A stretch of 43,303 nt of DNA from contig JANNQJ010000425.1 of the NCBI GenBank assembly GCA_031400675.1, positions 1 through 43,303 of the forward strand. The letters are read 5' to 3'. Numbering within the stretch: the first letter of the stretch is position 1; each line of letters opens with the position of its first letter. The notes under the pieces were generated by a model. It was not told the DNA's origin. It saw only the letters and a program-made list of their open reading frames with translations, and ran no database searches. Shown in pieces: positions 4,893 through 33,864 of the stretch. Made by a program: the position numbers and the translations under genes. Source of the DNA: Cyclobacteriaceae bacterium. GTDB lineage: Bacteria > Bacteroidota > Bacteroidia > Cytophagales > Cyclobacteriaceae.

Positions 4893-4921
4893 ACATCCAA
4901 AAATTTTGCGTCCCCACAAAA

Positions 4922-6040: not shown

Positions 6041-6209
6041 AGTTTCTAAATAGATCGATTACTTGGTCAGGATACGTTATATGAATGGTGTGAATGCCTA
6101 CTGATTTGCTGGTAGAAAATGCCAAAACAGTGCGTTCCGGTAACACATCGATGATGACACCGCCCAAATCAAAAACAAGTGACTTAATACCTGCAGGAAG
6201 AGAGGTCAT
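6033..6209 (-). pseudogene. 58-codon in-frame remnant of a HAD (subfamily IA, YihX-like) phosphatase with its central core deleted
   Basis: Hand translation of the minus strand gives MTSLPAGIKSLVFDLGGVIIDVLPERTVLAFSTSKSVGIHTIHITYPDQVIDLFRNYE*. The first part is N-terminal HAD motif I-like (FDLGGVIIDV). The last part looks like the extreme C-terminus of the same family. The stop overlaps the M50 ATG (TATGAGTAA). Confidence 0.55.
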
Positions 6210-6319
6210 AGAAAAACTGATTTGATTTGAAACGCTTCATCATTCGTGCAATATTAATTATTCCAGTTTAGTAAATTAGCAACCAGCGAAACGATTCACC
6301 TATAATTAAAATCAGGAAC

Positions 6320-7687: not shown

Positions 7688-7716
7688 GTATTTCATTATT
7701 CATAACTAAAATCGTC

Positions 7717-9465
7717 ATGAAACAAACAATCACATTGCTGGGTTTTATTTTTATAATAGTGAACTGCTTTTCCCAGGGGTTACATCAAAAAACATATTGT
7801 AACCCAATGGACATTAACTACCGGTACAATTTCGAACAGTTGAATGAAAAAATTTCATATCGGTCAGGTGCTGATCCGGTTGTGATCAATCACAAGGGAG
7901 AATATTTTCTGTTTGTTACAATCTCCGGAGGATGGTGGCATTCAAAGGATTTATTACACTGGAATTATGTGGTGCCTGATAAGTGGCCGATGGAAGACAT
8001 GTGTGCGCCTGCGGCCTTATCTGTGAGGGACACCTTATACTTGTTTCAGTCAACCTTTGAGAAACGTCCTATTTTTTACAGTACAGAACCAGAGAAAGGA
8101 AAATTAAAATTCTTTAACCGCTTACTTCCACAATTGCCAAAAGATATTGGGCCATGGGACCCCGGTCTTTTTTATGACGAAGAAAAAGATAAATGGTACA
8201 TGTATTGGGGCTCCTCAAATGTTTACCCAATTTACGGAGCGGAATTGGACAAGAAACGTCAACTGACCTATGCAACCCCATATAAAGGATTAATCTCACT
8301 TCATCCCGATCTACACGGATGGGAGCGCTTTGGTTTAAACCATACCGATACGATCCGACCTTTTATTGAAGGAGCCTGGATGACCAAATACAACAAAAAA
8401 TATTATTTGCAATATGGAGCCCCGGGTACGGAGTACAACGTGTATGGCAATGGAACCTATATTGGCGATGATCCGCTCGGGCCTTTCACATACGCTGCTT
8501 ACAACCCGATTTCATACAAGCCGGGCGGATTTATGACAGGCGCTGGTCACGGCAGCACTTTTCAAGACAACTACGGTAATTGGTGGAATACCGGAACACC
8601 CTGGATTGCTGTAAACTGGAATTTTGAACGCAGAATAGCCATGTTTCCTGGAGGCTTTGATCAAAATGACCAAATGTATTTTAACACACGGTTTGGAGAT
8701 TTCCCACATTACTTGCCAACCGGAAAGATGACAAACAAAGACGCGTTATTTACAGGATGGATGCTGCTATCCTATAAAAAACAGGTTCAGTCTTCGTCAC
8801 AAAAAGAAAATTTCAGTCCAGAGAAATTAACAGATGAAAACCCACGTACCTTTTGGGTGGCTGGCACCTCAAAAAAAGGTGAGTGGGCAACCATTGATCT
8901 GGGAAAGGTTCAAAATGTAAAGGCTTTTCAACTCAACTATACCGATTATAAATCCGATATTTTTGATAACGATTCCTCCGTATATATTCAATTCAGGATG
9001 TACGCGTCCAAGGACGGGAGTGTTTGGGAATTAATGCACGACCAGTCGAAGGTAAAGGAAGATCGTCCGAACGCTTTTATTGAACTGCCTGCACCTGTAA
9101 AAGCACGCCACATTAAGTTTGAGAATGTGTACGTGCCTACGCCCAATCTGGCGATAAGCGACATCCGTATTTTTGGAAATGGAGATGATAAACTGCCAAA
9201 AACCCCAACCAAACTGAAAGCCACCCGTAAGCAGGACAAACGTAATACGAACATCAGTTGGAAGCCGGTGCCCGGTGCCGTGGGATATAACATTCTTTGG
9301 GGAATTGATAAAGACAAATTGTATCAAACCTACCAGGTATGGGCCGATGCAGGTTCTATCCTGGAAATACGAGCCCTTACAGTTGATCAATCATACTTTT
9401 TTGCAATTGAAACATTCAATGAAAATGGGGTTTCTGTAGTGAGTCAGGTTGTTGAGTGTCCGTAG
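7717..9465 (+). CDS. GH43-family five-bladed propeller hydrolase fused to an F5/8 type C (CBM32-like) domain and a C-terminal FN3 domain
   Basis: The signal peptide is MKQTITLLGFIFIIVNCFSQG. GADPVVINHKGEYFLF is the Asp-base block and IEGAWMTKYNKKYYLQYGAPG is the Glu-acid block. TDENPRTFWVAG...GEWATIDLGK...FQLNYTDY is discoidin-like. PTKLKATRKQDKRNTNISWKPVPGAVGYNILWG is FN3-like. Confidence 0.7.
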   Translation: MKQTITLLGFIFIIVNCFSQGLHQKTYCNPMDINYRYNFEQLNEKISYRSGADPVVINHKGEYFLFVTISGGWWHSKDLLHWNYVVPDKWPMEDMCAPAALSVRDTLYLFQSTFEKRPIFYSTEPEKGKLKFFNRLLPQLPKDIGPWDPGLFYDEEKDKWYMYWGSSNVYPIYGAELDKKRQLTYATPYKGLISLHPDLHGWERFGLNHTDTIRPFIEGAWMTKYNKKYYLQYGAPGTEYNVYGNGTYIGDDPLGPFTYAAYNPISYKPGGFMTGAGHGSTFQDNYGNWWNTGTPWIAVNWNFERRIAMFPGGFDQNDQMYFNTRFGDFPHYLPTGKMTNKDALFTGWMLLSYKKQVQSSSQKENFSPEKLTDENPRTFWVAGTSKKGEWATIDLGKVQNVKAFQLNYTDYKSDIFDNDSSVYIQFRMYASKDGSVWELMHDQSKVKEDRPNAFIELPAPVKARHIKFENVYVPTPNLAISDIRIFGNGDDKLPKTPTKLKATRKQDKRNTNISWKPVPGAVGYNILWGIDKDKLYQTYQVWADAGSILEIRALTVDQSYFFAIETFNENGVSVVSQVVECP

Positions 9466-9473
9466 CCGTGCGC

Positions 9474-11375
9474 ATGAAAAATTTGCTCTTTTTAATTTCT
9501 GTTTTTTTTATCAGCTCGGCAACTGCACAGGCAATTGTTGATGATGCGGATGACGAACATATTTTTATATTGAATGACCTCACTTATTTTATCGATCCAT
9601 TCGATACGCTTACAATAGAAACAGCCTCTTCGGCTTCATTTGTAAAAAATTACCTCCGACATAGCTCCTATCACAACACCGATTTCCAATCGGGTGCAGC
9701 CTATTGGATACGCATGCCCGTTCAATCCAATTCACGATCAAAAAAGAATTGGATTTTTGAATTCTACGATCAAACAATCGATCACCTGGAGGTCTTTATA
9801 CCTCAACCCGAAGGGGTATTTCAACAATCCATAACAGGCGACCAGTATAAATTTGAACAACGAACGTTCCCGCATAAAAATTTTGAAATACAAGTACCTA
9901 GCCACGGTGATACAACGGTATATTACTATTTCAAAATCCGGTCGCATGATTTTGCCGATATCCGCATTGTCTTTCGCTCCATCGATCGGTTCATTTACTA
10001 CACCTTGAATGAATATTTTCTGTACGGCACGTTTTATGGAATGATCTTTATTATTATTCTGTACAACTTCCTGGTATACCTGGCGATACGTGAAATCAAA
10101 CACATCTTCTATATTTTTTACATTTTAAGTGTGGCGTTTTATGCTATGAGCGTGGATGGAATCGGCTTTCAATATATCTGGCCTGATTATCCTCAATGGA
10201 ATAAAGTTGCTGTTGGGGTTTCTCTTTACTCACTCATTCTTTGGGCACTTATTTTTACCAGGCGGTTCCTCAGCACGGAAGCGAATGCACCGAGATTGGA
10301 TAAAGTATTAAGATGGGCTATCTTCGGACGTACTGCTTTGTTTCTCATTACCTTATTATTTTATCCACAACTTTTCTCGTATCGCAATATAGAGATCATT
10401 CCGCTGTCGCTGATTTTATATACAGGAATTGTAGTTTGGTACGAAGGTTACCGGCCTGCACGCTTTTTTGTAATTGCCTACGGATTATTATTCTCGGGCT
10501 TTTTTATCCGGATGCTGGTGTACTTAAATGTATTACCGTTCACAATTATCTCGCACTATAGTCTTCACCTCAGTTTTGGATTGGAAATGCTATTCCTCAC
10601 GTTTGCACTGGGTGACCGAATTCGAATATTAAAAGACAATCGCGATCGGGCCTTGAAACGAATCATTCACCAGCACGAATTTAACATGCAGTTACAAGAC
10701 AAAGTAAATCGTGAATTGGAGGAAAAAGTTAAAGAGCGCACAGTGGAACTGGATACAAAAAATCACCTGCTGGAAGAGAGTAATCAAAAACTGGAACAAC
10801 AGGCCATTGAAATCAATCAGATTAATTCGATGCTGGATCTTGACAATTGGAAACTAAAAAACAGAATTAAAGAAGTATTAAGTGAACGGTTGTTGGAGAA
10901 AACGATGGATTACACTGAATTCACAACCCTCTATCCGGATAACCTCGCGTGCTACCGATCGTTGGAAAATCTCAAATGGGAACATGGCTTTCACTGTCGT
11001 AAGTGCGATAACGAGAAGTATTTCGAAGGTGCATTAAAATTCGCTCGCAGGTGTACGCGCTGCGGATACAACGAGTCCATCACTGCATTCACCATCTTCC
11101 ACAGCATCAAATTCCCGATTGAAAAAGCATTTTACATAGCCTACCTGGCCGTAAGCGGCAAAAAGGAAAGCACCCTAGGAGTTCTGGCAAGGAAGCTGGG
11201 ACTTGGATTAAATACCGTTTGGGGTTTTCGAAGTAAGGTAATTGAACGAGTAAGAGAGCTTGAAAAGGGCGGAAGAAAGCCTACCAACGCTCGCTGGGAG
11301 GAAGTAATCATAGAAAACCCTAAAATCAATTCAAAATCTAAGGTTGCTATCACCACCGGTGTTCGACAAGACTAA
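9474..11375 (+). CDS. 7TMR-DISM-type membrane sensor (DISMED2 ectodomain + 7TM) with a coiled-coil linker and a C-terminal IS1595-transposase-type zinc-ribbon/HTH DNA-binding domain; candidate PUL regulator
   Basis: ATG 9474 gives the signal peptide MKNLLFLISVFFISSATAQA, followed by an ~160-aa ectodomain, seven hydrophobic helices and a heptad-rich linker. Then comes LENLKWEHGFHCRKC-x15-CTRCGY...FTIFHSIKFPIEKAFYIAYLAVSGKKESTLGVLARKLGLGLNTVWGFRSKV. No DDE domain follows. Confidence 0.7.
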   Translation: MKNLLFLISVFFISSATAQAIVDDADDEHIFILNDLTYFIDPFDTLTIETASSASFVKNYLRHSSYHNTDFQSGAAYWIRMPVQSNSRSKKNWIFEFYDQTIDHLEVFIPQPEGVFQQSITGDQYKFEQRTFPHKNFEIQVPSHGDTTVYYYFKIRSHDFADIRIVFRSIDRFIYYTLNEYFLYGTFYGMIFIIILYNFLVYLAIREIKHIFYIFYILSVAFYAMSVDGIGFQYIWPDYPQWNKVAVGVSLYSLILWALIFTRRFLSTEANAPRLDKVLRWAIFGRTALFLITLLFYPQLFSYRNIEIIPLSLILYTGIVVWYEGYRPARFFVIAYGLLFSGFFIRMLVYLNVLPFTIISHYSLHLSFGLEMLFLTFALGDRIRILKDNRDRALKRIIHQHEFNMQLQDKVNRELEEKVKERTVELDTKNHLLEESNQKLEQQAIEINQINSMLDLDNWKLKNRIKEVLSERLLEKTMDYTEFTTLYPDNLACYRSLENLKWEHGFHCRKCDNEKYFEGALKFARRCTRCGYNESITAFTIFHSIKFPIEKAFYIAYLAVSGKKESTLGVLARKLGLGLNTVWGFRSKVIERVRELEKGGRKPTNARWEEVIIENPKINSKSKVAITTGVRQD

Positions 11376-11553
11376 ATTGCAATCGTTTCCGGCTCTATGT
11401 TTTTTTTAAATGAAAAACTTAAGAAAAAGTTGTTTTTTCTAACTGTAATCGATTGAAATCGATGTTTTTATTGAATTAAAAAGTTTAGTAAAAAATGACC
11501 AAGAACTTCTGAAAAAATCAATTAAAACGAAAAAAACTATTTAATGTGCTTGC

Positions 11554-11610
11554 TTTTGCCAAACTTGAATAGCGCCAAAATATGATTTCACCCAATACAA
11601 TTTGGCAAAA
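11554..11610 (+). promoter_or_regulatory. Perfect 10-bp inverted repeat TTTTGCCAAA-N37-TTTGGCAAAA ending 2 nt before the susC ATG; operator or 5'-leader hairpin, function unknown
   Basis: Read directly: 11554-11563 and 11601-11610 are exact reverse complements. A third half-copy, GCCAAAA, lies at 11574-11580. Confidence 0.5.
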
Positions 11611-11612
11611 CA

Positions 11613-14600
11613 ATGATGAAATTTTTACTTTTTACGTGCCTTTTACTGTTTTCGATAACAAACGCAATAGCTCAACCACGTACTATCAGGGGTAAGGTAA
11701 TCTCTTCCGAGGACAGCCAGCCAATACCAGGTGTAAATGTAATTATACAGGGAACTACGAAAGGCGCAGCCACGGATGCTGAAGGTGCATATTCTCTCGA
11801 ATTGGCAGCAGGAGAAAATACGCTATCATTCACTTTTGTTGGGTATAAAACTCAGACTATAGAGATCGGGCAGCGTGAAGTTATTGACATTGTTCTAGAA
11901 GTAGATGCAACAGAATTAGAAGAAGTAGTTGTGATTGGTTACGGAACGCAGCGCAAAAGGGATGTTACGGGTTCAATTGTATCCATTAAGGGAAGTGAAG
12001 TTTCAAACAAGCCAAATGCAAACCCGCTAAATTCTATACAAGGTAAAGTTTCCGGGGTAACAGTGACTAATAGTGGCGTTGCGGGAGCATCCCCTACAAT
12101 TCGGATCAGAGGGGTGGGTTCAATTTCTAACACCAATCCGCTCTATGTAGTGGATGGAATCTTTACCGACAACATTGACTTTGTGAATCCAAATGACATA
12201 GAGTCTATGGAAATTCTTAAAGATGCTTCATCACTTGCTATTTATGGGGTGCAGGGAGCTAATGGTGTTATAATAATAATTACAAAAAGAGCTAAAAAAG
12301 ATGAGACCAACATTAACTTTAGTTCGTACGCTGGTTTTCAACAAGTGACCAATCCAATAGAGGTTACAAACGCAGCCGAATTTAAGCTTCTCTATGATGA
12401 GGACTTATCAAATCAAGGCGAAGCACCTTTTGATTTTAGCAATTACACCGCTGATACTGATTGGCAAGATCAAATCCTAAGAAGTGCTGTTATCATGAAC
12501 TACAGCTTAAGTATCAATTCTGCCAGCGAAAAAAACCTGACAAGCTTTAGCCTGAATTACTTTAAGCAGGATGGGGTGGTTAAATACGATTCATACTCCC
12601 GGTACACCGCCCATCTAAAGGACGAGTTTACTATTAACAATCACATAAAAGTGGGTGGAGACATTACACTTTTCCACTGGACGCGTGAACCCCAAACAGC
12701 ACAATTAAACAATGCCATCTGGGCTGCTCCTGTTTACGCACCTAAAGCTGAAAATGGGCTCTATAACTCCAGTCCATCTTTTCAACGTGCACAGGTAGGC
12801 AATCCTGTCGCAACTACTGAAATCTTGAAAGATAAAACTATCAGCGAAGGATACAGGGTAGTGGGTTCAGGTTTTGTGGAACTAAATATTTTGAAAAACA
12901 TCACGTGGAAATCTGTTTTTTATACTGATCTCGGTTTTAATAAATCAAGAGGTTACACGCCTAAATACTCCATTGGAGCAAACACGGATCCTGATGATCC
13001 AAACTTCGATCTTATACAAGTTACCGACAGAACTTCCGTGCGCCAATCTGCTGATAACTACACCGCATGGCAAATGGACCACACATTTACTTACAGTAAA
13101 AACATAAACGAAATTCATAATTTCACACTGTTAGGCGGCATTACACAACGATACAGTGGTTACGATGGCTTAGAGGGGAGCAGGCAAGGCAAGGACCCTC
13201 TCCCTATTCCTGATGATCCAGATTTTTGGTATTTGGGGATTGGTGACAATGATCCAACCCGCACGAATGGTGGTGGGGCTTCAGAGGAAGTATTCTTATC
13301 TTTCTTAGCCAGAGCAAACTATGCATTCAAAGACAAATATTTGTTAAACGTTTCGTACCGCAGAGACGGAACATCAAAATTTAATCCCTTCAATCGTTGG
13401 GGGGATTTTGGATCTGTTGGTGCCGGTTGGGTTCTTACCGAAGAATCATTCTTCGATTTCGAACCCGTAAATTTCTTGAAACTAAAAGCCTCATGGGGCA
13501 GGTTGGGAAATGATAAAATCGGAAATTATTTGTATTACCCTTTGCTAAATACAGGTGTAGCGGGGGTATTTGGGGAAAATGTTTATCCGGCTGCTATACC
13601 CTCATTTATACCGAACCCCAACATACGGTGGGAAATTGTACAAGGGACCGATATTGGTTTTGAAACAATATTTCTTGAAAGTAAACTAACGGCTGAATTT
13701 TCATATTACAATCGGGAAACAAAAGACATCCTCGTAAACATAGAAATTCCTGCTTCCGTTGGAACAGGAATATCACAGATTAATGCCGGAACAATTGTGA
13801 ACAGAGGTATTGAACTTTCATTAGGATGGAATGACGAATTTTTTACTGACTGGCGCTACTCTGTTAGTGGTAATGTTACTACAACTCATAACGAAGTAGT
13901 TTCAATAGGAGATAATGAAGGCTACAACATAATATCAGGCCCATCAAGGACAGAACTCGGACATCCTATCGGTGCTTTTTATGGATATGTTCAGGAAGGC
14001 GTTTTCCAATCGCAAGAAGAAGTTGATGCCTCATCACAGGCAGGAACCGGTGCTAAACCTGGCGACATTCGGTATAAAGATGTAGATGGCAATGGCGAAT
14101 TTGATGATAATGATAGAACATTTATAGGTTCTCCGATTCCTGACATTACATACGGTCTATCGCTAGGTCTGTCCTATAAGTATTTTGAATTCGGAATAGA
14201 CTTTCAAGGTGCCGGAGGAAATGACATCTACAGACAACGATCTACACAAACTTTTGCTCCGCTTAATTATGAATCCAATCGTTTGGATAGATGGGTGGGC
14301 CCGGGTTCGTCAAACAAAGAGCCAATAATGGACAGTAGTCGACCTAATAATTATCTGGTTTCTACTTATTTTCTTGATGCTGCTGATTACTTCCGAATCA
14401 GAAACATTTCATTGGGGTATAATTTCCCGTTTGAGTTATTAGAAAAAATAAAACTCAAGAATGCTAAAGTCTACATAAACGCACAAAACGTCTTCACCTT
14501 TACCAAAGCGACTGGCTATTCACCTGAGGTTGGCGGAAGTCCAATCAGTTTTGGTGTAGACAATGGGGTCTATCCAATCCCTGCTACTTATACTGCTGGC

Positions 14601-14618
14601 ATTAACCTGAACTTTTAA
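11613..14618 (+). CDS. susC: SusC/RagA-family TonB-dependent outer-membrane transporter (no STN domain)
   Basis: The signal peptide is followed by a carboxypeptidase-D-regulatory-like domain (IRGKVISSEDSQPIPGVNVIIQGTTKGAATDAEGAYSL), then a plug (VVIGYGTQRKRDVTGSI), a ~1000-aa barrel, and a C-terminus ending in NLNF. A SusD gene follows 5 nt later. Confidence 0.95.
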   Translation: MMKFLLFTCLLLFSITNAIAQPRTIRGKVISSEDSQPIPGVNVIIQGTTKGAATDAEGAYSLELAAGENTLSFTFVGYKTQTIEIGQREVIDIVLEVDATELEEVVVIGYGTQRKRDVTGSIVSIKGSEVSNKPNANPLNSIQGKVSGVTVTNSGVAGASPTIRIRGVGSISNTNPLYVVDGIFTDNIDFVNPNDIESMEILKDASSLAIYGVQGANGVIIIITKRAKKDETNINFSSYAGFQQVTNPIEVTNAAEFKLLYDEDLSNQGEAPFDFSNYTADTDWQDQILRSAVIMNYSLSINSASEKNLTSFSLNYFKQDGVVKYDSYSRYTAHLKDEFTINNHIKVGGDITLFHWTREPQTAQLNNAIWAAPVYAPKAENGLYNSSPSFQRAQVGNPVATTEILKDKTISEGYRVVGSGFVELNILKNITWKSVFYTDLGFNKSRGYTPKYSIGANTDPDDPNFDLIQVTDRTSVRQSADNYTAWQMDHTFTYSKNINEIHNFTLLGGITQRYSGYDGLEGSRQGKDPLPIPDDPDFWYLGIGDNDPTRTNGGGASEEVFLSFLARANYAFKDKYLLNVSYRRDGTSKFNPFNRWGDFGSVGAGWVLTEESFFDFEPVNFLKLKASWGRLGNDKIGNYLYYPLLNTGVAGVFGENVYPAAIPSFIPNPNIRWEIVQGTDIGFETIFLESKLTAEFSYYNRETKDILVNIEIPASVGTGISQINAGTIVNRGIELSLGWNDEFFTDWRYSVSGNVTTTHNEVVSIGDNEGYNIISGPSRTELGHPIGAFYGYVQEGVFQSQEEVDASSQAGTGAKPGDIRYKDVDGNGEFDDNDRTFIGSPIPDITYGLSLGLSYKYFEFGIDFQGAGGNDIYRQRSTQTFAPLNYESNRLDRWVGPGSSNKEPIMDSSRPNNYLVSTYFLDAADYFRIRNISLGYNFPFELLEKIKLKNAKVYINAQNVFTFTKATGYSPEVGGSPISFGVDNGVYPIPATYTAGINLNF

Positions 14619-14623
14619 ATCGT

Positions 14624-16111
14624 ATGAGAAATAATAATATAGCCAAATTTTTTCTCGCATTATCTATCTTGATTTTTTCAGGGTGCGAAGATTTTCTGGA
14701 TAGAAAGCCCTTGGGACGCTACACTACAGAAACTTATCCAACAGGTGGGCTTGCGCAGTATGTTTATGGTATGTATTCCGACCTTCGATTGTATGGCGCA
14801 CATGCGTGGCCATTCGTTGGTGTAACCAGTATCCGGTCAGATGATGCAGCTAAAGGAAGCACACCAACAGATGGAGCACAAGCACAGGGGGTTTATGATG
14901 AATTTACATTATTGTCAAATCATGAATTAACAAAAACATTTTATGTTGACACGTATGCTGCTATTAATAAATGCAACGTGGTTCTTCAGCAATCTGATTC
15001 TTTAAGAAGCGAGATAAGTGAAGAGGACTACGAGATCTCACGTGCTGAAGCAAAATTTGTTCGTGGTTATTTGTACTTCAATTTAGTGCGGGGTTTTGGC
15101 GGAGTTCCAAAAATAGATGCACTGGTCACAGATTTATCTTCTTTTAATAGTCCGCGTGCATCGGCAGAAGAGATTTATGCCTTTATAGAAAGTGACTTAC
15201 TTGAAGCCGAACAATTTCTTCCCACATTCTGGGGAGATGAGTTCGCTGGACGACCCACTAAAAGTGCAGCGCAAGGGATGCTCGCAAAAGTTTATTTGTA
15301 TCAAGATCGATGGGCTGAATCATTAGCTCTTTCTGAAAGCATTATTAATTCGGGTCTGTTTGACTTAACCACACCATACAATGTGATCTTTACTGAGGCT
15401 GGTGAAAACAGCAAGGAGTCTCTTTTTGAAGTTCAATGTATTGTCAACGAAAGCTACAATTTTGGGTGCGAATACGCTCTTGGGCAGGGAATACGAGGCA
15501 CTGGCCAAATGGACTTAGGGTGGGGGTTTAATTCTCCTTCGCAACAATTGTTGGATGCCTATGAACTAAATGACCCCAGAAAGGAAGCCACTATTTTATT
15601 TCAAGGGGAGGTAACCACATATGGAGAAATAGTACCGGGTATTTCGGGAGTTACCAATGCTCGCTTCAATCAAAAAGTTTACACAAACCCAAGCTTTAGA
15701 ACCGCTGCCAACAGTCGTTTTGGCCAGTGGATGAACGTGAGGATTTTGCGCTATGCAGACATTGTGTTAATGGCTGCTGAAGCTGCAAATGAATTAGGGC
15801 AAACTTCTGATGCGCTAGAATACCTGGAGATGGTGCGAGCCCGGGCACGCGGGACTAATCCCTCTGTATTACCAGAAATTACAGAAACCGACCAGGACTT
15901 ATTGCGGGATCTTATTCGCCACGAAAGAAGAATTGAACTGGCCATGGAACACGAACGCTTTTTCGATTTAGTGCGGTGGGGAATTGCATCAGAAGTTTTA
16001 CAGGCAGCGGGTAAAACAAATTTTGTGGCTGGAAAGCATGAACTTCTTCCTATACCACAAGATGAAATTGACAAATCCGATGGTGTCCTAATTCAAAATC
16101 CAGGATACTAA
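14624..16111 (+). CDS. susD: SusD/RagB-family outer-membrane glycan-binding lipoprotein
   Basis: The lipobox and SusD N-terminus read ILIFSGCEDFLDRKPLG. TPR-like helical blocks are present (RAEAKFVRGYLYFNLVRGFGGVP, RILRYADIVLMAAEA, IRHERRIELAMEHERFFDLVRWG). Confidence 0.9.
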   Translation: MRNNNIAKFFLALSILIFSGCEDFLDRKPLGRYTTETYPTGGLAQYVYGMYSDLRLYGAHAWPFVGVTSIRSDDAAKGSTPTDGAQAQGVYDEFTLLSNHELTKTFYVDTYAAINKCNVVLQQSDSLRSEISEEDYEISRAEAKFVRGYLYFNLVRGFGGVPKIDALVTDLSSFNSPRASAEEIYAFIESDLLEAEQFLPTFWGDEFAGRPTKSAAQGMLAKVYLYQDRWAESLALSESIINSGLFDLTTPYNVIFTEAGENSKESLFEVQCIVNESYNFGCEYALGQGIRGTGQMDLGWGFNSPSQQLLDAYELNDPRKEATILFQGEVTTYGEIVPGISGVTNARFNQKVYTNPSFRTAANSRFGQWMNVRILRYADIVLMAAEAANELGQTSDALEYLEMVRARARGTNPSVLPEITETDQDLLRDLIRHERRIELAMEHERFFDLVRWGIASEVLQAAGKTNFVAGKHELLPIPQDEIDKSDGVLIQNPGY

Positions 16112-16185
16112 TTACAATTAACAACGGATATTCTTAAACAATATCGTATATGTACCAGAGTGTTAACTAAACAAAATTTAAAATT

Positions 16186-17484
16186 ATGAGAACAACAAAA
16201 TTTTTATTGGGAATGTTTTTCATCACAGCATTAGTCTTTTTTGCTGCATGTGATGAAGACGACAATGGTGATGTGGATCCAGGGCCGCTTAACTTAACGA
16301 GTGTTACCGCTGTAGGTACTGACATTAATAGCGGAGAGCCTGTTACAAAAACATTAGCTTCGGGTAGCACAACAGCTAATGTTCCGATTGACGGTGTGAT
16401 TACAATTGTCTTTGCTAAAGATGTGGATGCTGCTACTGCAAACTCTACAAACATAACGTTAACGCAGGGCAGTACTGCGGTTGCTACAACAGTAGTAGCA
16501 GCGGGGTCTGTAGTTACGCTAACTCCAACAGCTGATTTAGCACAAGATACAGACTACACACTTACGTTAACTTCGGCTATTGCAGGCGATGACGGTGGTC
16601 TTTTCACACAAACTACAAGAGCCTTTAGTACAGAAACCGAAGAGGAGCTTGAAGAAGGCTTAATAGCACATTGGAAATTTGAAGACAATGCAGACGATCT
16701 GACTGGTGATTTCAACGGAAGCAATGTTATTGCAATCACGTATGTGGCAGGTCGTTCAGGGACTGCTGGAAAAGCAGCTTCATTCAATGGAACTACTAGT
16801 ATTATTGACGTTCCAAATGGTGTTGACTTAGTTACTACTGAAGATTTTACATTAGCTTTCTGGATAAAAGTCAATTCCGATAACAAAAAAGTGGATGGCA
16901 CTACTCCAAAAGGTTACTTCATAATGGGCTTCAATGGTTTCAGGGGGTTTCAGGTAGAAATGCCTGATAATCGGGCCAATACTAAAATGGTTGCTCAATA
17001 TGTTCGAGCAGATGATTCAAAAGGATCAGAAGATTTGTGGTTGGATGCAACTGGCAATTTGGGATGGCAAGGTTGGACATTCTCTGAGGACCTAACAGAT
17101 GACGGAGGATTGCCAGCATTTGTAGACGATGAGTGGGCGCATTTTGTTTACGTGTATGACAGTGAGTCAAAAGTTGGTTCCATTTATCTAAATGGTGAGC
17201 TTAGAAAAAGTCAGGATTTCAACCTCTGGCCAGATGATAGTCCTGTGAAAACAGTAACGGGGTTAACATTTAATGACCAAGATGCAGGCGTTACTGTTCC
17301 TGGATTAGGTACTGAATTTGCCCTTGGCTTTTTTTGTAGTTCTACAACAACTGCATTCGATTTTGCAACATATTCGAACGTAGATCATAATCACTTTAAA
17401 GGTGAGTTGGATGATGTGAGAATTTATCACATCGCTAAAACAGAAGCAGAGGTTTTAGCGCAGTATGATGCTGAAAAACCTTAA
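16186..17484 (+). CDS. Surface lipoprotein with an N-terminal Ig-like domain and a C-terminal LamG/concanavalin-A-like lectin domain; candidate surface glycan-binding protein
   Basis: The lipobox plus acidic export signal read FFAACDEDDNGD. An Ig-like segment follows (PIDGVITIVFAKDVDAATANSTNITL...TLTPTADL...DYTLTLT). LamG_3-like hallmarks are present (LIAHWKFEDNADDLTG...ASFNGTTSIIDVPN...FTLAFWIK...GELDDVRIYHIAKTEAEV). Confidence 0.65.
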   Translation: MRTTKFLLGMFFITALVFFAACDEDDNGDVDPGPLNLTSVTAVGTDINSGEPVTKTLASGSTTANVPIDGVITIVFAKDVDAATANSTNITLTQGSTAVATTVVAAGSVVTLTPTADLAQDTDYTLTLTSAIAGDDGGLFTQTTRAFSTETEEELEEGLIAHWKFEDNADDLTGDFNGSNVIAITYVAGRSGTAGKAASFNGTTSIIDVPNGVDLVTTEDFTLAFWIKVNSDNKKVDGTTPKGYFIMGFNGFRGFQVEMPDNRANTKMVAQYVRADDSKGSEDLWLDATGNLGWQGWTFSEDLTDDGGLPAFVDDEWAHFVYVYDSESKVGSIYLNGELRKSQDFNLWPDDSPVKTVTGLTFNDQDAGVTVPGLGTEFALGFFCSSTTTAFDFATYSNVDHNHFKGELDDVRIYHIAKTEAEVLAQYDAEKP

Positions 17485-17505
17485 TCTATAATACTAATAG
17501 CATTA

Positions 17506-17538
17506 TTAAGGGGGTTCCGTAAGGGCCCCCTTAATTTT
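17506..17538 (+). terminator. Rho-independent terminator-like hairpin inside the PUL
   Basis: TTAAGGGGG (17506-17514) and CCCCCTTAA (17526-17534) form a 9-bp GC-rich stem followed by TTTT. Confidence 0.7.
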
Positions 17539-17572
17539 AAATATTGTTTTCTCTAAACACTTCACTCCTTCG

Positions 17573-19576
17573 ATGCGAAAAAGATTTTTTATAGCTTCAC
17601 TGCCCTTTCTTCTTTTATGGGCGTGCTCGGAGGATGATAAAAAACCAATACCCGATGCCTTGCAACTTACTTCCATTGAAGTAGGAAGTGAAAGTTTAAA
17701 CCTTACTGATTTCTCTCAAAATACAGAAATACCCTTTGATCAACCCATCACGCTTAACTTTGTAGTTCCGGTAGATATGCGGACAGTTACAGCCATTTCA
17801 ATAACAGATGCCTCAGAGTCACGCTCATTTGACCATGAATTTTTAAATGAAAACAAAACCTTATTACTCACACCAGATGCTCCCCTACCCGCCAATGAAG
17901 TAATTACACTTGGTATCTCTGATGAACTGGCGGGAGCTGCAGGGGAAACTTTTCCAGGCATTGAAGTTGAATTCACAACCTTACAGAGCAGTTTTGCAGT
18001 AGCCTCTGTTATTATTGATGGACAAACCGCCACCAGTTCAAACCGCGTGAAAGATATTGACCGTAACCCGGTTGTTGAAATTACATTTCCTGTACCCATA
18101 GACCCCACCACGGTTACGAACACCACCGTAAAATTTCTGGGCAATACCATCGTGCCAACGCTTGCGTTTCAATTTTCAGAGGCCAATACAAAAATTACCA
18201 TCACGTCCGACCAAACGCTTAAACATTTGTGGCGATATACCTTAACTCTTACCACAGGAATTCAAGGCGAGGAAGGTGAATTTTTTACGGCCTATACAAA
18301 ATATTTTTACACCGAAGTTGACCCAACACCCAAGCTTCCTCCCCTACCCAATGACGAGGACAGCGACACCGATAATACGAACGACCTCCTGTCTGTTGTA
18401 CAGCAGCAAACCTTCAAATACTTCTACGACTTTGCGCACCCGACCAGCGGCATGGCGAGAGAAAGAAATACTTCAGGCAACACCGTGACAAGCGGTGGTT
18501 CCGGTTTTGGCATCATGGCCTTAATCGTAGGCATGGAAAGAAATTTTATAACACGCCAACAGGGAATTGACCGAATGGATAGGATTCTTGATTTTCTGGA
18601 AACAGCAGATCGCTTTCATGGCGTATGGCCACACTGGATGGATGGCAATAACGGAGATGTCATTCCCTTCAGTCCGAATGACAACGGTGGAGATTTAGTA
18701 GAAACTTCATTCCTGGTGCAGGGCTTACTCACGTTCCGTCAATATTTAGACCCGCTCGCACTCGAAGAAAGTAACTTGATTGATCGCATCAACGTACTCT
18801 GGGAAGAAGTAGAATGGGATTGGTACAGGCGATGTGAACCAACTTGCCAAAATGTTTTATACTGGCACTGGTCACAGGATAAAGGTTGGATCATGAACTT
18901 CGCGCTGTCGGGATATTTTGAGCAGCAGATCACCTACTTTCTTGCAGCAGCCTCGCCCACTCACAGCATTCCTGAAATTGTGTACACGAATGGCTTTACG
19001 CAAAACGGAAACTTTGTTAGAAATGATACCTACTATGGCCATTCGTTAAAGCTTGGAGGATTATTCCCCTTATTCTGGGTGCAGTACTCTTACTTAGGCC
19101 TCGACCCACATTTCTCAGATGACTATGCCGACTACTGGCAACAAGGTGTCAATGCTTCTTTGATCAATCACGATTACTGTGTAGCCAACCCCAGAAATTT
19201 TGTAGGCTATAGCGATGCATGTTGGGGCCTTACCGCAAGTGATAATCAATCAGATTACAATGCGCATTCTCCGGGAAACGATTTGGGCGTCATCACTCCT
19301 ACAGCTGCACTGTCGTCATTTCCATACACGCCTGTAGAATCAATGAAAGCATTAAAATTTTTCTATTACACACTGGGCGACAGACTTTGGGGAACGTATG
19401 GGTTTTACGATGCATTCAATCCAACAGAAAATTGGTACGCGTCTTCTTACCTGGCCATTGACCAGGGACCTATTGTCGTGATGATTGAGAATTACAGGAC
19501 AGGATTACTGTGGGAGTTGTTCATGTCGGCACCGGAAGTACAGGTAGCCAAGGACGAACTCGATTTTGTTTTTTAA
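17573..19576 (+). CDS. Surface lipoprotein with about three N-terminal Ig-like (SbsA/Big_5-type) domains fused to a GH144-like catalytic domain; predicted cell-surface endo-beta-1,2-glucanase
   Basis: The lipobox plus acidic export signal read LLLWACSEDDKKP. Ig-like units repeat (PITLNFVVPVDMRTV..., PVVEITFPVPIDPTTV...). The C-terminal ~400 aa are paralogous to 6320..7687 (FKYFYDFAHPTSGMARE, VETSFLVQGLL, YLAIDQGPIVVMIENYRTGLLWELF). Confidence 0.6.
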   Translation: MRKRFFIASLPFLLLWACSEDDKKPIPDALQLTSIEVGSESLNLTDFSQNTEIPFDQPITLNFVVPVDMRTVTAISITDASESRSFDHEFLNENKTLLLTPDAPLPANEVITLGISDELAGAAGETFPGIEVEFTTLQSSFAVASVIIDGQTATSSNRVKDIDRNPVVEITFPVPIDPTTVTNTTVKFLGNTIVPTLAFQFSEANTKITITSDQTLKHLWRYTLTLTTGIQGEEGEFFTAYTKYFYTEVDPTPKLPPLPNDEDSDTDNTNDLLSVVQQQTFKYFYDFAHPTSGMARERNTSGNTVTSGGSGFGIMALIVGMERNFITRQQGIDRMDRILDFLETADRFHGVWPHWMDGNNGDVIPFSPNDNGGDLVETSFLVQGLLTFRQYLDPLALEESNLIDRINVLWEEVEWDWYRRCEPTCQNVLYWHWSQDKGWIMNFALSGYFEQQITYFLAAASPTHSIPEIVYTNGFTQNGNFVRNDTYYGHSLKLGGLFPLFWVQYSYLGLDPHFSDDYADYWQQGVNASLINHDYCVANPRNFVGYSDACWGLTASDNQSDYNAHSPGNDLGVITPTAALSSFPYTPVESMKALKFFYYTLGDRLWGTYGFYDAFNPTENWYASSYLAIDQGPIVVMIENYRTGLLWELFMSAPEVQVAKDELDFVF

Positions 19577-19601
19577 TTAATCATTAAAAACCATTCAAAA
19601 C

Positions 19602-21896
19602 ATGAGATCACTACTCTTTATCACACTTGGAATTATTCTGTTTGCAGCCTGCAGCACTCCTACAACCAATATAGAACAATCGTCAGACAAAATTAACAGA
19701 CAGGTTGACTCCGTGTTAAGCCTGATGACGATGGAAGAAAAAATCGGGCAGCTTAACCTACCCTCTGCTGGGGAATTCACAACCGGTGAAGCTCAAAATT
19801 CAGATATCGCTAAAAAAATTGAGAAAGGAATGGTGGGCGGTCTCTTTAATATTAAGTCAGTTGCACGAATCAAGGACGTGCAACGAATTGCAGTCGAAAA
19901 AAGCCGGATGAAAATTCCCTTGATCTTTGGTATGGATGTGATTCACGGCTATGAGACTGTATTTCCAATTCCACTTGGCTTAAGCTGCAGTTGGGATATG
20001 ACATTGGTGGAACGCAGTGCTCGCATCGCAGCACAAGAAGCAAGTGCTGACGGCATCTGCTGGACTTTCTCACCCATGGTTGACCTTGCCCGCGATCCGC
20101 GGTGGGGTCGTATTGCTGAAGGAAGTGGTGAGGACCCTTACCTCGGTTCTGAAATTGCGAAAGCCATGGTAAGGGGGTATCAGGAAAATGACTTAGCTGC
20201 GAATAATACCATCATGGCGTGCGTCAAACACTATGCCTTATACGGTGCAGCCGAAGCCGGCCGCGATTATAACACAACAGATATGAGTCGTCATCGAATG
20301 TATAATGAATACTTTCCTCCATACAAAGCAGCTGTAGAGGCAGGAGCCGGGAGCGTTATGGCTTCCTTTAATGAGGTGGATGGCATACCTGCTACTGCCA
20401 ACAAGTGGTTGCTTACCGATGTGCTTCGCGACCAGTGGGGTTTCAATGGTTTTGTTGTTTCAGACTTTACCGGAATAACAGAAATGATAGACCACGGATA
20501 TGGTGAAGATTTAAAAGCTGTATCATACAAAGCCTTAGCCGCAGGTCTTGATATGGATATGGTGGCGGAAGGATTTCTGACCACGCTTGCGCAATCCCTG
20601 AAAGAAGGAACAATAACAGAGCAACAAATTGATGAAGCCTGCAGAAGAGTACTCAGGGCTAAATTTCAGCTTGGTCTTTTTGACGATCCTTACAAATACT
20701 GTGATGAGAACAGGGCAAAGACTGAAATATTTACCACGGTAAATCGCACTGAGGCCCGCAGCATTGCAGCCCAGAGCTTTGTGTTGCTAAAGAATGAAAG
20801 CAACGTACTTCCCATTAAGAAGTCAGGAACAATTGCATTGATTGGCCCACTTGCCAATGCAAAAGAGAACATGACCGGTACGTGGAGTGTAGCAGCCAGA
20901 TTTTCTGAATCCATTTCACTGCTAACCGGTTTACAGAAGGCAGTCGGAACAGATGCTAAAATTGTTTACGCCAAGGGATCGAACCTCGATGAAGATGAAG
21001 CCTTTGAAGACAGGGCCGCCATGTTTGGCAAATCGCTCGACCGCGAAAAGCGATCGGCTGAAGTTTTACGCGCTGAAGCTGTGCGGATCGCTAAAAGTGC
21101 TGATGTGATTATTGCGGCAATAGGAGAATCAGCCGAGATGAGCGGAGAATCTTCAAGTCGCACCAACATCGAAATACCTGAAACACAGAAAGAGCTTCTG
21201 AAAGCATTGTTAAAAACCGGAAAGCCAGTTGTTCTGGTGTTGTTCACAGGTCGACCCTTGGTATTGAAATGGGAAGAAGAAAATGTTCCTGCCATTTTAA
21301 ACGTTTGGTTTGGTGGAAGTGAAGCGGGCGATGCCATCGCGGATGTATTGTTTGGTGACGTAAATCCGTCTGGAAAATTGACCACTACATTTCCGCAACA
21401 TGTAGGACAGGTTCCACTTTATTATGCGCACAAGAATACAGGCCGACCGTTACCGGAGGGAAAGTGGTTTCAAAAATTCCGTTCTAATTACTTAGATGTG
21501 TCAAACGATCCCCTCTATCCATTTGGTTTCGGGTTGAGTTACACACAGTTTCAATATGGAGAAGTGAAGCTTGATAAAACAGAAATGACTGCTTCTGATT
21601 CACTTCAGGCTTCAATTGAGGTTTCCAATATGGGTTCCCGCGCAGGCAGTGAAGTAGTGCAGCTTTACATTCGCGATCTGGTTGGATCTGTAACACGACC
21701 CGTAAAAGAACTAAAAGCATTCAGCAAAATCTCACTGAAAGCCGGTGAGAAAAGAACTATAGCGTTTAAGCTTACTAAAAAAGAGCTTTCATTTTATAAC
21801 AACAACTTAGATTTTGTTTGCGAGCCCGGTAAGTTCCAGGTGTTTGTTGGAGGAAATTCGCGCGATGTGAAGCAAGGTGAGTTTGAACTGAAATAG
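19602..21896 (+). CDS. GH3 beta-glucosidase (BglX-like), lipoprotein without a surface-export signal, so probably periplasmic
   Basis: The lipobox is ILFAACSTPTT. GH3 blocks are present: IPLIFGMDVIHGY, SPMVDLARDPRWGRIAEG, KHYALYG, GFNGFVVSDFTGI (nucleophile Asp region), and a C-terminal FnIII-like domain (VVQLYIRDLVGSVTRPVKELKAF). Confidence 0.9.
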   Translation: MRSLLFITLGIILFAACSTPTTNIEQSSDKINRQVDSVLSLMTMEEKIGQLNLPSAGEFTTGEAQNSDIAKKIEKGMVGGLFNIKSVARIKDVQRIAVEKSRMKIPLIFGMDVIHGYETVFPIPLGLSCSWDMTLVERSARIAAQEASADGICWTFSPMVDLARDPRWGRIAEGSGEDPYLGSEIAKAMVRGYQENDLAANNTIMACVKHYALYGAAEAGRDYNTTDMSRHRMYNEYFPPYKAAVEAGAGSVMASFNEVDGIPATANKWLLTDVLRDQWGFNGFVVSDFTGITEMIDHGYGEDLKAVSYKALAAGLDMDMVAEGFLTTLAQSLKEGTITEQQIDEACRRVLRAKFQLGLFDDPYKYCDENRAKTEIFTTVNRTEARSIAAQSFVLLKNESNVLPIKKSGTIALIGPLANAKENMTGTWSVAARFSESISLLTGLQKAVGTDAKIVYAKGSNLDEDEAFEDRAAMFGKSLDREKRSAEVLRAEAVRIAKSADVIIAAIGESAEMSGESSSRTNIEIPETQKELLKALLKTGKPVVLVLFTGRPLVLKWEEENVPAILNVWFGGSEAGDAIADVLFGDVNPSGKLTTTFPQHVGQVPLYYAHKNTGRPLPEGKWFQKFRSNYLDVSNDPLYPFGFGLSYTQFQYGEVKLDKTEMTASDSLQASIEVSNMGSRAGSEVVQLYIRDLVGSVTRPVKELKAFSKISLKAGEKRTIAFKLTKKELSFYNNNLDFVCEPGKFQVFVGGNSRDVKQGEFELK

Positions 21897-21904
21897 TATT
21901 GAAT

Positions 21905-22109
21905 GCCGAGAAAGAACTCAAAATGATTTGAGAAAATTTTGATTCAGTAAAGTGAGAGTCGTGAATTAAAATTTGTATTGAGTACAAATGACCTTGCTTT
22001 TTACAGAAAAGATATGACCTTTGGAACGGAGCCAGGGGAATTTGTGGTGTTTGTAGGTGGAAATTCAAGAGATGTTAAAGAAGAGAGATTCATTGAAGTA
22101 AACTTATAA
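21905..22109 (+). pseudogene. Decayed relic of the C-terminal ~65 codons of a second, divergent GH3 beta-glucosidase
   Basis: Frame 21951-22109 translates to SESRELKFVLSTNDLAFYRKDMTFGTEPGEFVVFVGGNSRDVKEERFIEVNL*. This aligns with the intact GH3 end GEKRTIAFKLTKKELSFYNNNLDFVCEPGKFQVFVGGNSRDVKQGEFELK*; the run VFVGGNSRDVK is identical. Upstream, EKELKMI*ENFDSVK* in a different frame still resembles VKELKAFSKISLKA, so stops and a frameshift have accumulated. Confidence 0.7.
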
Positions 22110-22126
22110 CTTAATAATCAATAGCC

Positions 22127-23812
22127 ATGAAAGGTCTTCACCTTACCGATTACATCGTTTTTCTTTTCTACTTTCTGATTGTTAGTATTTACGGATACTG
22201 GGTATACAATCGCAAAAAGAAACTTCAGGCTGATTCAAAAGATTTTTTTCTGGCTGAGGGATCGCTCACCTGGTGGGCTATTGGTGCTTCGTTGATCGCA
22301 TCGAATATCTCGGCAGAACAAATGATTGGCATGAGCGGTTCAGGCTTCAAACTCGGGCTAGCCATATCAGCTTACGAATGGATGGCTGCCGCTACACTCC
22401 TCATTGTTGCCATCTTTTTTATGCCGGTGTATTTGAAGAACAAGATTTTTACTATGCCGCAGTTTTTGAGTCAGCGCTACAACGAACGCGTTGCTATGAT
22501 CATGGCGGTATTCTGGCTGATGTTATATGTGGTGGTTAACCTGATGTCAATCCTCTATCTGGGTGCATTGGCCATTAGCGGAATATCAGGATTGAGTGTT
22601 GTGTTCTGCATACTGGCTTTAGCCCTCTTTGCCATTTTTATTACACTGGGTGGTATGAAGGTTATTGGATATACGGATGTTATACAGGTATTCTTTTTAG
22701 TTCTGGGTGGATTGGTAGCCTCCTACATCGCACTGAATATGATCTCCGGTAATGATGGTATCGTAAAAGGCTTCAATATTTTAACCAAAGAGGCATCCGG
22801 ACATTTTGATCTCATCTTTCAAAAGGATAATCCAAACTATATGGATCTTCCAGGAATAAGTGTTCTCATTGGTGGTATGTGGATTGCCAATTTAAGTTAC
22901 TGGGGCTGTAACCAATATATTACACAACGCGCACTGGGCGCCTCGCTTCCTGTTGCCAGAGCAGGACTTTTATTTGCTGCATTTTTAAAGATGCTCATGC
23001 CGGTAATTGTAGTGATACCCGGTATCGCAGTATATTTTATAATCAGAGAACAAATACCAGGCATCAGCGCCAGCGACATGCTCACCTCTTCAGGAGTTGA
23101 GGATCCGAATAAAGCATACCCGGCTTTACTGGGGTTGCTCCCTATAGGCTTAAAAGGTTTAGCATTTGCTGCGCTGACTGCAGCCATCGTTGCTTCACTG
23201 GCGGGTAAAGCAAATAGTATTGCTACCATTTTTACACTTGACATTTATAAAAAGGCATTTAACAAAAATGCCAATGAGCAGAATCTGGTTAATGTGGGCA
23301 AGGTAACTGTAATTGTGGCGATGTTGATGGCTGTTCTGTTATCGATGCTTGTTGGCGAAGCGTTAATGGGTGAAGGAAAACAAGGATTTCAATACATACA
23401 AGAATATACGGGATTTGTTTCACCCGGAATTTTCTCCATGTTCATTTTAGGTTTCTTCTGGAAAAAAACCACTTCAAACGCTGCGCTCTTTGCTACGATT
23501 GGCGGGTTTATTGTTTCGGTAATCCTGAAATTCTTACCACAGTGGATTGATCTCTCGCCTCTTTATACGTTCGGATGGGCTGTCTCAAACTCAACGGGCG
23601 TATACGAAATTCCATTCCTGGATAGAATGGTTATCGTGTTTGCCGTGTGCATTCTTGGCATGTATATCATCAGTATATACGAAAATAAAAAAGGGGTCAT
23701 TCCAAAAGGATTAGAAGTAGACAGAAGTATGTTTAAGGTTTCTACTTCGTTTGCGATAGGCGCACTTATTATTTTTGCAATGTTGGTTGCCGTTTACTCA
23801 GTTTATTGGTAA
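22127..23812 (+). CDS. Sodium:solute symporter (SSS/SGLT family), predicted Na+/glucose(-oligosaccharide) inner-membrane importer
   Basis: The protein is 561 aa and polytopic. FFLAEGSLTWWAIGASLIASNISAEQMIGMSGSGF and NQYITQRALGA are typical of SGLT-type transporters. Confidence 0.85.
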   Translation: MKGLHLTDYIVFLFYFLIVSIYGYWVYNRKKKLQADSKDFFLAEGSLTWWAIGASLIASNISAEQMIGMSGSGFKLGLAISAYEWMAAATLLIVAIFFMPVYLKNKIFTMPQFLSQRYNERVAMIMAVFWLMLYVVVNLMSILYLGALAISGISGLSVVFCILALALFAIFITLGGMKVIGYTDVIQVFFLVLGGLVASYIALNMISGNDGIVKGFNILTKEASGHFDLIFQKDNPNYMDLPGISVLIGGMWIANLSYWGCNQYITQRALGASLPVARAGLLFAAFLKMLMPVIVVIPGIAVYFIIREQIPGISASDMLTSSGVEDPNKAYPALLGLLPIGLKGLAFAALTAAIVASLAGKANSIATIFTLDIYKKAFNKNANEQNLVNVGKVTVIVAMLMAVLLSMLVGEALMGEGKQGFQYIQEYTGFVSPGIFSMFILGFFWKKTTSNAALFATIGGFIVSVILKFLPQWIDLSPLYTFGWAVSNSTGVYEIPFLDRMVIVFAVCILGMYIISIYENKKGVIPKGLEVDRSMFKVSTSFAIGALIIFAMLVAVYSVYW

Positions 23813-33709: not shown

Positions 33710-33864
33710 TGAATTTGTAACGAAGTTTGTACCACAATACGTTGACTTACATACTCGAAATGTTACACATAAACGATGAATTATTTAGGACGCAGGTTAG
33801 TCGACTAAATATGGATAAGTGGAACACGAATGGTAAATTTAAGTAAATCTTAACAGTGCGTACG

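Follow-up and report, generated by a model that had tools for sequence, protein, structure and literature searches.

A seven-transmembrane receptor with a transposase-derived zinc-ribbon/helix-turn-helix head: a probable one-component regulator of a beta-1,2-glucan utilisation locus in Cytophagales

The stretch of DNA analysed here, 43,303 nucleotides (nt) of contig JANNQJ010000425.1 from a Cyclobacteriaceae bacterium (the window), contains a polysaccharide utilisation locus (PUL) with genes for glycoside hydrolases (GH) of GH144, the endo-beta-1,2-glucanase family. Directly upstream of its susC/susD pair lies a gene for a membrane protein that ends in a zinc ribbon and helix-turn-helix (HTH) of the IS1595-transposase type. 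We propose that this protein, called the regulator below, is probably a one-component transcription regulator that is embedded in the membrane, works without a phosphorelay and controls the adjacent beta-1,2-glucan PUL: its periplasmic DISMED2 domain would sense, seven transmembrane (TM) helices and a signalling helix (S-helix) would transmit, and the heads of a dimer would bind operator-like boxes and activate the susC operon. The parts of this picture that we infer are the ligand, DNA binding, the dimeric state and activation.

The preliminary description of this DNA had claimed a single open reading frame (ORF) of 633 amino acids (aa) from the ATG at 9474, in which DISMED2 and seven TM helices are followed by an IS1595 zinc ribbon and HTH without the DDE catalytic domain. 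Translation confirmed the uninterrupted ORF and the sequence features quoted from it, and Pfam and NCBIfam, used for all domain calls, returned the architecture as predicted. An in-frame GTG is present upstream at 9456; the ATG is taken as the start because the N-termini of homologues align there and the stop codon of the preceding GH43 gene is at 9465. The gene and its parts are as follows.

9474..11375, + strand: regulator gene, an uninterrupted ORF of 633 aa plus stop
9474..9533, + strand: signal peptide, aa 1-20 (hydrophobic segment aa 4-22)
9576..9968, + strand: 7TMR-DISMED2 periplasmic sensor domain, aa 35-165 (Pfam PF07696, E 1.8e-24)
10011..10619, + strand: 7TMR-DISM_7TM membrane domain, aa 180-382 (PF07695, model positions 1-205 of 205, E 7.5e-45)
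10620..10883, + strand: cytoplasmic coiled-coil linker, aa 383-470, containing the S-helix with its ERT signature
10734-10742, + strand: ERT signature, E421/R422/T423, in KVKERTVEL within KVKERTVELDTKN
10947..11069, + strand: four-cysteine zinc ribbon of the IS1595-transposase type, aa 492-532 (PF12760; ligands C508, C511, C527 and C530)
11079..11273, + strand: tri-helical HTH, aa 536-600 (NF033547 positions 3-52; putative recognition helix NTVWGFRSKV)

S-helices are coiled coils of about 40 residues that join sensor to output in dimeric receptors and have a central ERT as their hallmark (PMC1592074). Here the assignment was made from the motif, not from a profile: the linker carries ERT and lies between sensor and output. 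R422 is invariant and T423 near-invariant among the aligned homologues, and aa 358-454 form a single continuous helix in a full-length AlphaFold2 (AF2) model. The same model, built from 14 sequences, shows DISMED2 as a beta-sandwich; its overall predicted local distance difference test score (pLDDT) is 59, and with values below 50 at the C-terminus it is unusable for the output domain. Judged by hydropathy and the positive-inside rule (K/R in loops), the protein fits a predicted topology with the N-terminus in the periplasm and the C-terminus in the cytoplasm.

By its sensor and membrane modules the regulator is a member of the 7TMR-DISM receptors, reportedly described by Anantharaman and Aravind in 2003, with a non-canonical output. 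Receptors of this group such as RetS and LadS have the same N-terminal two-thirds, namely signal peptide, DISMED2, 7TMR-DISM_7TM and S-helix. The outputs known for them are histidine kinase, GGDEF/EAL, PP2C phosphatase and cyclase domains, and no histidine kinase, GGDEF/EAL, PP2C or cyclase output was found in the regulator with Pfam or NCBIfam. Its output is instead a module of predicted DNA-binding type, so that signalling would be direct.

This module matched Zn_ribbon_IS1595 at E 7.8e-6, with 26.2 bits against a gathering score of 25.4, and the ribbon was found in all 19 of the family members on which recurrence was checked. The following segment, aa 546-594, corresponds to positions 3-52 of the IS1595-transposase family model NF033547 in NCBIfam, a match that is weak when this protein is taken by itself but recurs in 17 of the 19. 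The four ribbon cysteines are invariant in 139 family sequences, in which T581, W583, F585 and K588 of the third helix are near-invariant, and the block RRCTRCGYNES.T..TIFH..KFPIEKAF is invariant in the aligned homologues. An AF2 model of the C-terminal 169 aa, based on the 139-sequence alignment, reached a pLDDT of 88.7 and a predicted TM-score (pTM) of 0.81; it consists of three short helices, the ribbon beta-hairpins and a three-helix bundle at 549-561, 568-575 and 579-598. The protein ends about 35 aa past the HTH. Pfam found no DDE_Tnp_IS1595 (PF12762) in the regulator, and likewise no HisKA, HATPase, receiver or AraC domain and none of PF07494, PF07495, PF00196 or Trans_reg_C.

The architecture is widely conserved. 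A homologue search returned 1,186 proteins at E<=1e-5; among the 120 matches listed nearly all were full length (a few were shorter), with 63-82% identity and the same domains. In a scan of one genome per species, relatives were found in 234 genomes, including many independent assemblies, some from cultured isolates. The best 80 of the 234 were fetched for locus comparison (L001-L080), and all are Cytophagales (Cyclobacteriaceae, Chryseolinea, Ohtaekwangia, Fulvivirgaceae and similar). Carriers available in culture include Chryseolinea lacunae Jin1, Ohtaekwangia kribbensis, Pseudochryseolinea flava, Chryseosolibacter indicus and Parachryseolinea silvisoli (loci L028, L035, L029, L042 and L057). 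Conservation is unevenly spread over the protein, with mean identities of 84% in the ribbon and 82% in the linker, the two highest, 58% in DISMED2, 37% in the C-terminal tail and 23% in the signal peptide, the least conserved part. A word-index search with the C-terminus alone gave mostly orthologue fragments from short contigs, which were used as alignment rows. Orthologues among the listed matches bear the names 'transposase' (NCBI), 'sensor histidine kinase LadS' (JGI) or 'hypothetical' in public databases.

The zinc ribbon PF12760 and the HTH are homologous to those of IS1595-family (ISXO2-like) transposases, from which the regulator differs in having no DDE domain and in carrying the module at the C-terminus of a membrane receptor. 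We searched a profile of its last 160 residues against 1.84 billion cluster representatives (clusters at 50% identity). The number of clusters matched was 344 at E<=1e-30, and it rose to 1,276 at E<=1e-10 and to 5,892 at E<=1e-3. Among the top 150 was P0340, a 298-aa IS1595-type transposase with both Zn_ribbon_IS1595 and DDE_Tnp_IS1595, which over the ribbon and HTH is 43% identical to the regulator across 124 ungapped residues (E 3e-37). A transposase origin of the module is therefore well supported. P0340 is unusually close to the regulator module and may mark the source transposase lineage. As the DDE domain is absent, the regulator is not a transposase and the 'transposase' labels of its orthologues are misleading. 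Nor is the gene mobile, to judge by the one conserved syntenic position that it occupies in each fetched locus; terminal inverted repeats and copy number were not searched.

About 100 of the top 150 clusters are proteins of about 600 aa with the module at the extreme C-terminus and 7TMR-DISM sensors 17-55% identical to that of the regulator. Nine others, of about 1,000 aa, consist of Reg_prop beta-propellers, Y_Y_Y, a coiled coil and an IS1595-type zinc-ribbon/HTH. The module and its coiled-coil linker thus behave, as far as domain composition can tell, as an interchangeable output found on sensor chassis of two different kinds. A metagenome scan with an alignment of the Reg_prop type, whose patterns lay in the Y_Y_Y region, fetched generic sensors of the kind seen in hybrid two-component systems (HTCS), with the zinc ribbon in L090 only. 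The members placed in their loci, with sensor identity to the regulator where given, were these.

P0221: 7TM type, sensor 44% identical; adjoins SusC, SusD, a surface-glycan-binding protein (SGBP), GH144 and GH3
P0210: 7TM type, 36%; flanked by GH3/GH31/sulfatase and GH144/GH2/SusD/SusC
P0203: 7TM type, 40%; upstream of unknown genes and GH3
P0204: 7TM type, 29%; upstream of a TonB-dependent receptor
P0231, P0291, P0223: 7TM type, 17-25%; outside PULs
P0341, P0297: propeller type; each at the 3' end of another PUL, one with SusC, SusD, CBM9 and a GH78-like gene, the other with SusC, SusD, FG-GAP/ASPIC and GH43
P0341, P0297, P0270, P0314, P0322, P0331, P0342, P0344, P0345: propeller-type proteins with the module (loci L081, L087, L090)

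The regulator's own clade is a dedicated component of GH144 PULs, and the superfamily is broader than PULs. On balance we favour the view that the IS1595 zinc-ribbon/HTH head, together with its signalling-helix linker, was exapted as a portable DNA-binding output on at least two unrelated sensor chassis (7TMR-DISM and HTCS-type beta-propeller/Y_Y_Y). This would give a large, unrecognised Bacteroidota superfamily of hundreds of clusters of ATP-independent, membrane-embedded transcription factors, including what we believe to be the first bacterial seven-transmembrane receptors to bind DNA directly, with one clade a dedicated beta-1,2-glucan PUL regulator in Cytophagales.

The genes around the regulator, as assigned with Pfam, are the following.

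4922-6040, - strand: M50 (site-2-protease family) peptidase gene
6320-7687, + strand: GH144-like gene (GH144a)
7717-9465, + strand: GH43+F5/8C gene
11613-14618, + strand: SusC (CarbopepD_reg and Plug, without STN)
14624-16111, + strand: SusD
16186-17484, + strand: Big_5/LamG surface-glycan-binding-like protein
17573-19576, + strand: Big_5+GH144
19602-21896, + strand: GH3
22127-23812, + strand: SSF symporter

We presume that the target operon runs from SusC through the SSF symporter (11613..23812, + strand). The preliminary description had called the regulator the only regulator-like gene of the locus. This held up: no other regulator domain was found in any ORF of at least 100 aa in the window, SusC lacks an STN domain, and no HTCS- or BguR-type sensor was found in the window or in the 80 loci. 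Its place immediately upstream of susC/susD, also claimed there, recurs in 73 of the 80 loci, where SusC, SusD and, further on, GH144, often with GH3, come after the regulator on the same strand. In six of the remaining seven the contig ends within 1.5 kb, and in one there is an insertion. Median identity across the loci is highest for the regulator (65%), followed by GH144 (56%), SusD (39%) and SusC (37%). This suggests that the SusC/SusD pair is replaced or diverges fast while regulator and operator are kept. Loci L008, L023 and L041 retain SusC at about 65-75%, and L008 and L023 retain SusD at about 75%.

Upstream, GH144a and the GH43 gene are packed against each other and against the regulator (gaps of 29 and 8 nt), so the pair is probably co-transcribed with it. 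The pair is found in only some related loci; it has no operator box in front, and its products may be 'sentinel' enzymes that make the inducer. GH144a and GH43 also separate the M50 gene from the regulator in the window, and the two are directly adjacent in L001 and L003-L007. We considered the M50 protease as a conserved partner and rejected it, since it occurs only in the closest relatives and probably reflects inherited synteny. At 33856-35121 (+ strand) a 421-aa ORF matches no Pfam family at E<=0.01.

The evidence for a candidate operator lies in the intergenic region between regulator and susC. Two operator-like boxes were found there.

11381..11417, + strand: distal box AATCGTTTCCGGCTCTATGTTTTTTTTAAATGAAAAA, 6 nt past the regulator stop codon
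11443..11484, + strand: proximal box CTGTAATCGATTGAAATCGATGTTTTTATTGAATTAAAAA, 129-170 nt before the susC ATG

The regulator-susC intergenic regions are otherwise unalignable. What they have in common is a box GAAAtCGTTTGAAATCAATGTTTTTTTT..G..AAAA at a near-constant distance from the susC ATG, in most cases some 150-170 nt upstream of it (range 147-276). In the proximal box of the window two ATC...TG half-sites share one helix face at a spacing of 10 bp. A second, more degenerate box, (AAACGTTTCCGG)...aTGTTTTTTTT.cG..AAAa, lies 66 bp upstream of the proximal one across the loci, and in the window the two appear as a 35-nt direct repeat with 65-nt spacing. We asked how specific the box is with a 31-nt position weight matrix (PWM), scanned over the 43-kb window, 1.42 Mb of related loci and 1.03 Mb of unrelated Bacteroidota loci (about 2.4 Mb). 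It scored 41.2 at 11443-11473, the next best site in the window scoring 6.9. In the related loci 59 of the 62 sites scoring at least 15 were directly after the regulator, with three elsewhere; 59 of the 80 loci have the box there at this score, and it is present in weaker form in some of the rest. The unrelated loci gave one weak match scoring at least 10.

In L033 a 4.3-kb insertion (3726-8060, with a non-SusC TonB-dependent receptor and an NADP oxidoreductase) lies between the regulator and the two boxes, which remain with the downstream side and thus belong to the downstream, presumably susC, control region and not to a terminator of the regulator. Rfam returned nothing near threshold for the intergenic region, and a scan for sigma-70-type promoters and terminators gave no enrichment over shuffled sequences, the sigma-70 model being uninformative for Bacteroidota. 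The preliminary description had named 6210-6319 as a second target. No copy of the conserved element was found there with the PWM, and a site upstream of GH144a that resembled the motif by eye (about 6208-6230, reverse strand) was dropped, as nothing else in the window scores above 6.9. Locus-specific co-variation of the two T-rich boxes was also rejected, similarity being 9.5/12 within loci and 9.2/12 between them; both are copies of one consensus.

Further features of this region were noted. At 11398-11480, overlapping both boxes, TGTTTTTT.TAA.TG.AA occurs three times at intervals of 32-33 bp (roughly three turns of the helix); the copies may be an array of weak sites or phased A/T tracts that bend DNA. 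A perfect 10-nt inverted repeat, TTTTGCCAAA at 11554-11563 and TTTGGCAAAA at 11601-11610 with 37 nt between the arms, ends 2 nt before the susC start (11613); from its position it could form a leader hairpin over the susC translation start. Near distant family members (L081-L090 and L170-L172) the PWM had no matches. By eye, boxes like ATGTTTTTT...G..AAAA stand beside distant members in L170 (3391-3610) and L171 (9803-10000), in L171 toward a divergent susC. As the PWM does not score them, the T-rich box (ATGTTTTT type) may be the part of the site that is common to the subfamily.

The closest parallel is BguR of Formosa agariphila, a beta-glucan utilisation regulator of the Flavobacteriia. It is an activator of 940 aa, one-component and membrane-spanning, with tandem beta-propellers and Y_Y_Y, one TM helix and an HTH of the GerE/LuxR type, and the only earlier regulator with a similar design, one-component and bound to the membrane, was SusR (bioRxiv 10.64898/2026.01.10.698779). 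Both BguR and the regulator have a periplasmic sensor, a helical linker and a cytoplasmic C-terminal end of HTH type, and neither has phosphorelay domains. Both stand directly upstream of susC/susD in beta-glucan PULs that include GH144 (BguR also in laminarin PULs), with a conserved motif between regulator and susC. However, they have no homologous domain in common, the regulator combining DISMED2, seven TM helices, an S-helix and an IS1595-type ribbon/HTH, in Cytophagales. It looks like a non-orthologous replacement at the same position, and the likeness is one of functional analogy only.

SusR, which governs starch use in Bacteroides thetaiotaomicron, is likewise a membrane-associated one-component PUL activator without phosphorelay domains (bioRxiv 10.64898/2026.01.10.698779). 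Its sensor and DNA-binding domains differ from those of the regulator, a distinction drawn from its description only. The preliminary description had spoken of a candidate new class of regulator. The architecture is new, but the concept of a membrane-spanning one-component PUL regulator was already known from SusR and BguR. No characterised member, and no description, of this architecture was found in open-access papers and bioRxiv, which agrees with what had been stated there. The HTCS of Bacteroides PULs are also PUL-linked inner-membrane glycan sensors with a DNA-binding output of their own, but the regulator lacks their HisKA, HATPase_c, receiver and AraC domains; its sister proteins (P0341, P0297 and others) pair an HTCS-type sensor with the module.

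A ToxR/CadC-like mechanism had also been proposed. The analogy is one of mechanism only: in ToxR, CadC, TcpP and Vibrio ChiS, as proposed here, one inner-membrane polypeptide links sensing in the periplasm with binding at a promoter. In ToxR and CadC an OmpR-type winged helix at the cytoplasmic N-terminus is followed by one TM helix and a C-terminal periplasmic sensor, and ChiS is a hybrid kinase with a cryptic HTH. With the opposite topology, seven TM helices and an unrelated DNA-binding fold, the regulator is therefore not a member of the ToxR/CadC family.

In the mechanism we propose, DISMED2 would sense beta-1,2-gluco-oligosaccharides released in the periplasm. The signal would pass through the seven-TM bundle to a parallel coiled coil and re-orient the two C-terminal heads of the dimer. 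These would bind the ATC-N-TG half-sites and ATGTTTTT boxes at 11381-11484 with the protein staying in the membrane, and binding would activate transcription of the genes for SusC, SusD, GH144, GH3 and the transporter. Activation is favoured because of the analogy with SusR and BguR.

Several points weigh against this mechanism. DNA binding is attributed to the module from its homology to a transposase region, and we know of no structural characterisation of DNA binding by the N-terminal region of an IS1595 transposase itself. A Foldseek search of the C-terminal model against the PDB gave no significant match (best E 0.31); the matches below significance were mostly HTH transcription factors and zinc ribbons and are only suggestive, and a PDB sequence search with the C-terminus returned only spurious WD-repeat-like and zinc-ribbon noise. 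As the full-length AF2 model is poor, neither dimerisation nor signal transmission can be argued on structural grounds. The ligand is read from the gene neighbourhood, and DISMED2 domains have been reported with varied signals, for example mucin glycans, which a preprint connects with RetS. Regulator and boxes are linked by co-occurrence only; the boxes might instead be an element of the promoter or be bound by a different factor. Finally, because very divergent members lie outside PULs, the family as a whole is not intrinsically one of PUL regulators.

The opposite sign of regulation, a repressor whose heads sit on the boxes without ligand and are released on glycan sensing, is unlikely. Sequence does not reveal the sign. 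The boxes stand between regulator and susC, where the promoter was not located, and if it lay within or downstream of them binding could block it. However, BguR, a membrane-bound PUL regulator, is an activator, as are SusR, ToxR, CadC and ChiS, and a direct-repeat array about 130-235 nt upstream of the ATG fits activator sites better.

It is rather improbable that the module does not bind DNA here at all, and serves instead to contact a protein or RNA partner or as a structural zinc domain, the boxes being a promoter or the site of another factor. This would accord with the want of a significant structural match to a solved DNA-binding protein and with a link between regulator and boxes that is only co-occurrence; boxes of the ATGTTTTT type are rich in A and T, and might be elements of a promoter or UP-like kind. 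Against it stand the strong homology to the transposase N-terminal region, the near-invariance of the putative recognition-helix residues over 139 divergent sequences, and a locus without another regulator. In addition, the module takes the place of histidine kinase or GerE outputs on two sensor chassis.

We think it very improbable that the protein is a tethered pro-form, cut in or near the membrane (for instance by the M50 protease encoded at 4922-6040) to let a free coiled-coil/zinc-ribbon/HTH fragment diffuse to DNA. In the window, and in L001-L007 as its closest relatives, the M50 gene does lie a short way upstream on the other strand. However, it is not in the 10-kb flanks of the other 73 loci, and in L001-L007 the whole upstream block (Ddl, PASTA, a type IX secretion system (T9SS) protein and M50) is syntenic, as recent common descent predicts. 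The conserved S-helix argues for conformational signalling.

That the gene is an artefact, either a sensor gene joined to an IS1595 fragment by misassembly or a frameshift, a possibility the preliminary description wanted checked, or a decaying IS remnant, can be dismissed: NCBI does name several orthologues 'transposase' and the Pfam ribbon match is barely above threshold in this protein, but more than 1,000 proteins, and the genomes of 234 species, have the same fusion at full length, its ribbon and HTH are 72-84% identical, its syntenic position is fixed and the DDE domain is absent.

As far as is known, the seven-TM receptor with a domesticated transposase head is new, and so are the reuse of this head on sensors of the HTCS type and the extent of the family. 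Re-annotation would be possible for hundreds of proteins that at present go by 'transposase', 'LadS histidine kinase' or 'hypothetical', and pipelines that use PF12760 as a marker of transposases or mobile elements (PMC13639185) will miscount such regulators. With cultured hosts and a defined candidate operator, the system lends itself to experiment, and the module might find use as a small biosensor for glycans that needs no phosphorelay.

PUL regulation outside the gut Bacteroides is poorly mapped, and the regulator would be a third, independently evolved, membrane-bound one-component solution. Direct sensing would have arisen convergently, at the same genomic position and in the same kind of PUL (GH144, beta-1,2-glucan) as BguR, in a different order of Bacteroidota. 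The 7TMR-DISM receptors would gain direct DNA binding as a type of output, and the family would offer a clean case of transposase domestication, in which a DNA-binding domain has been turned into a regulator.

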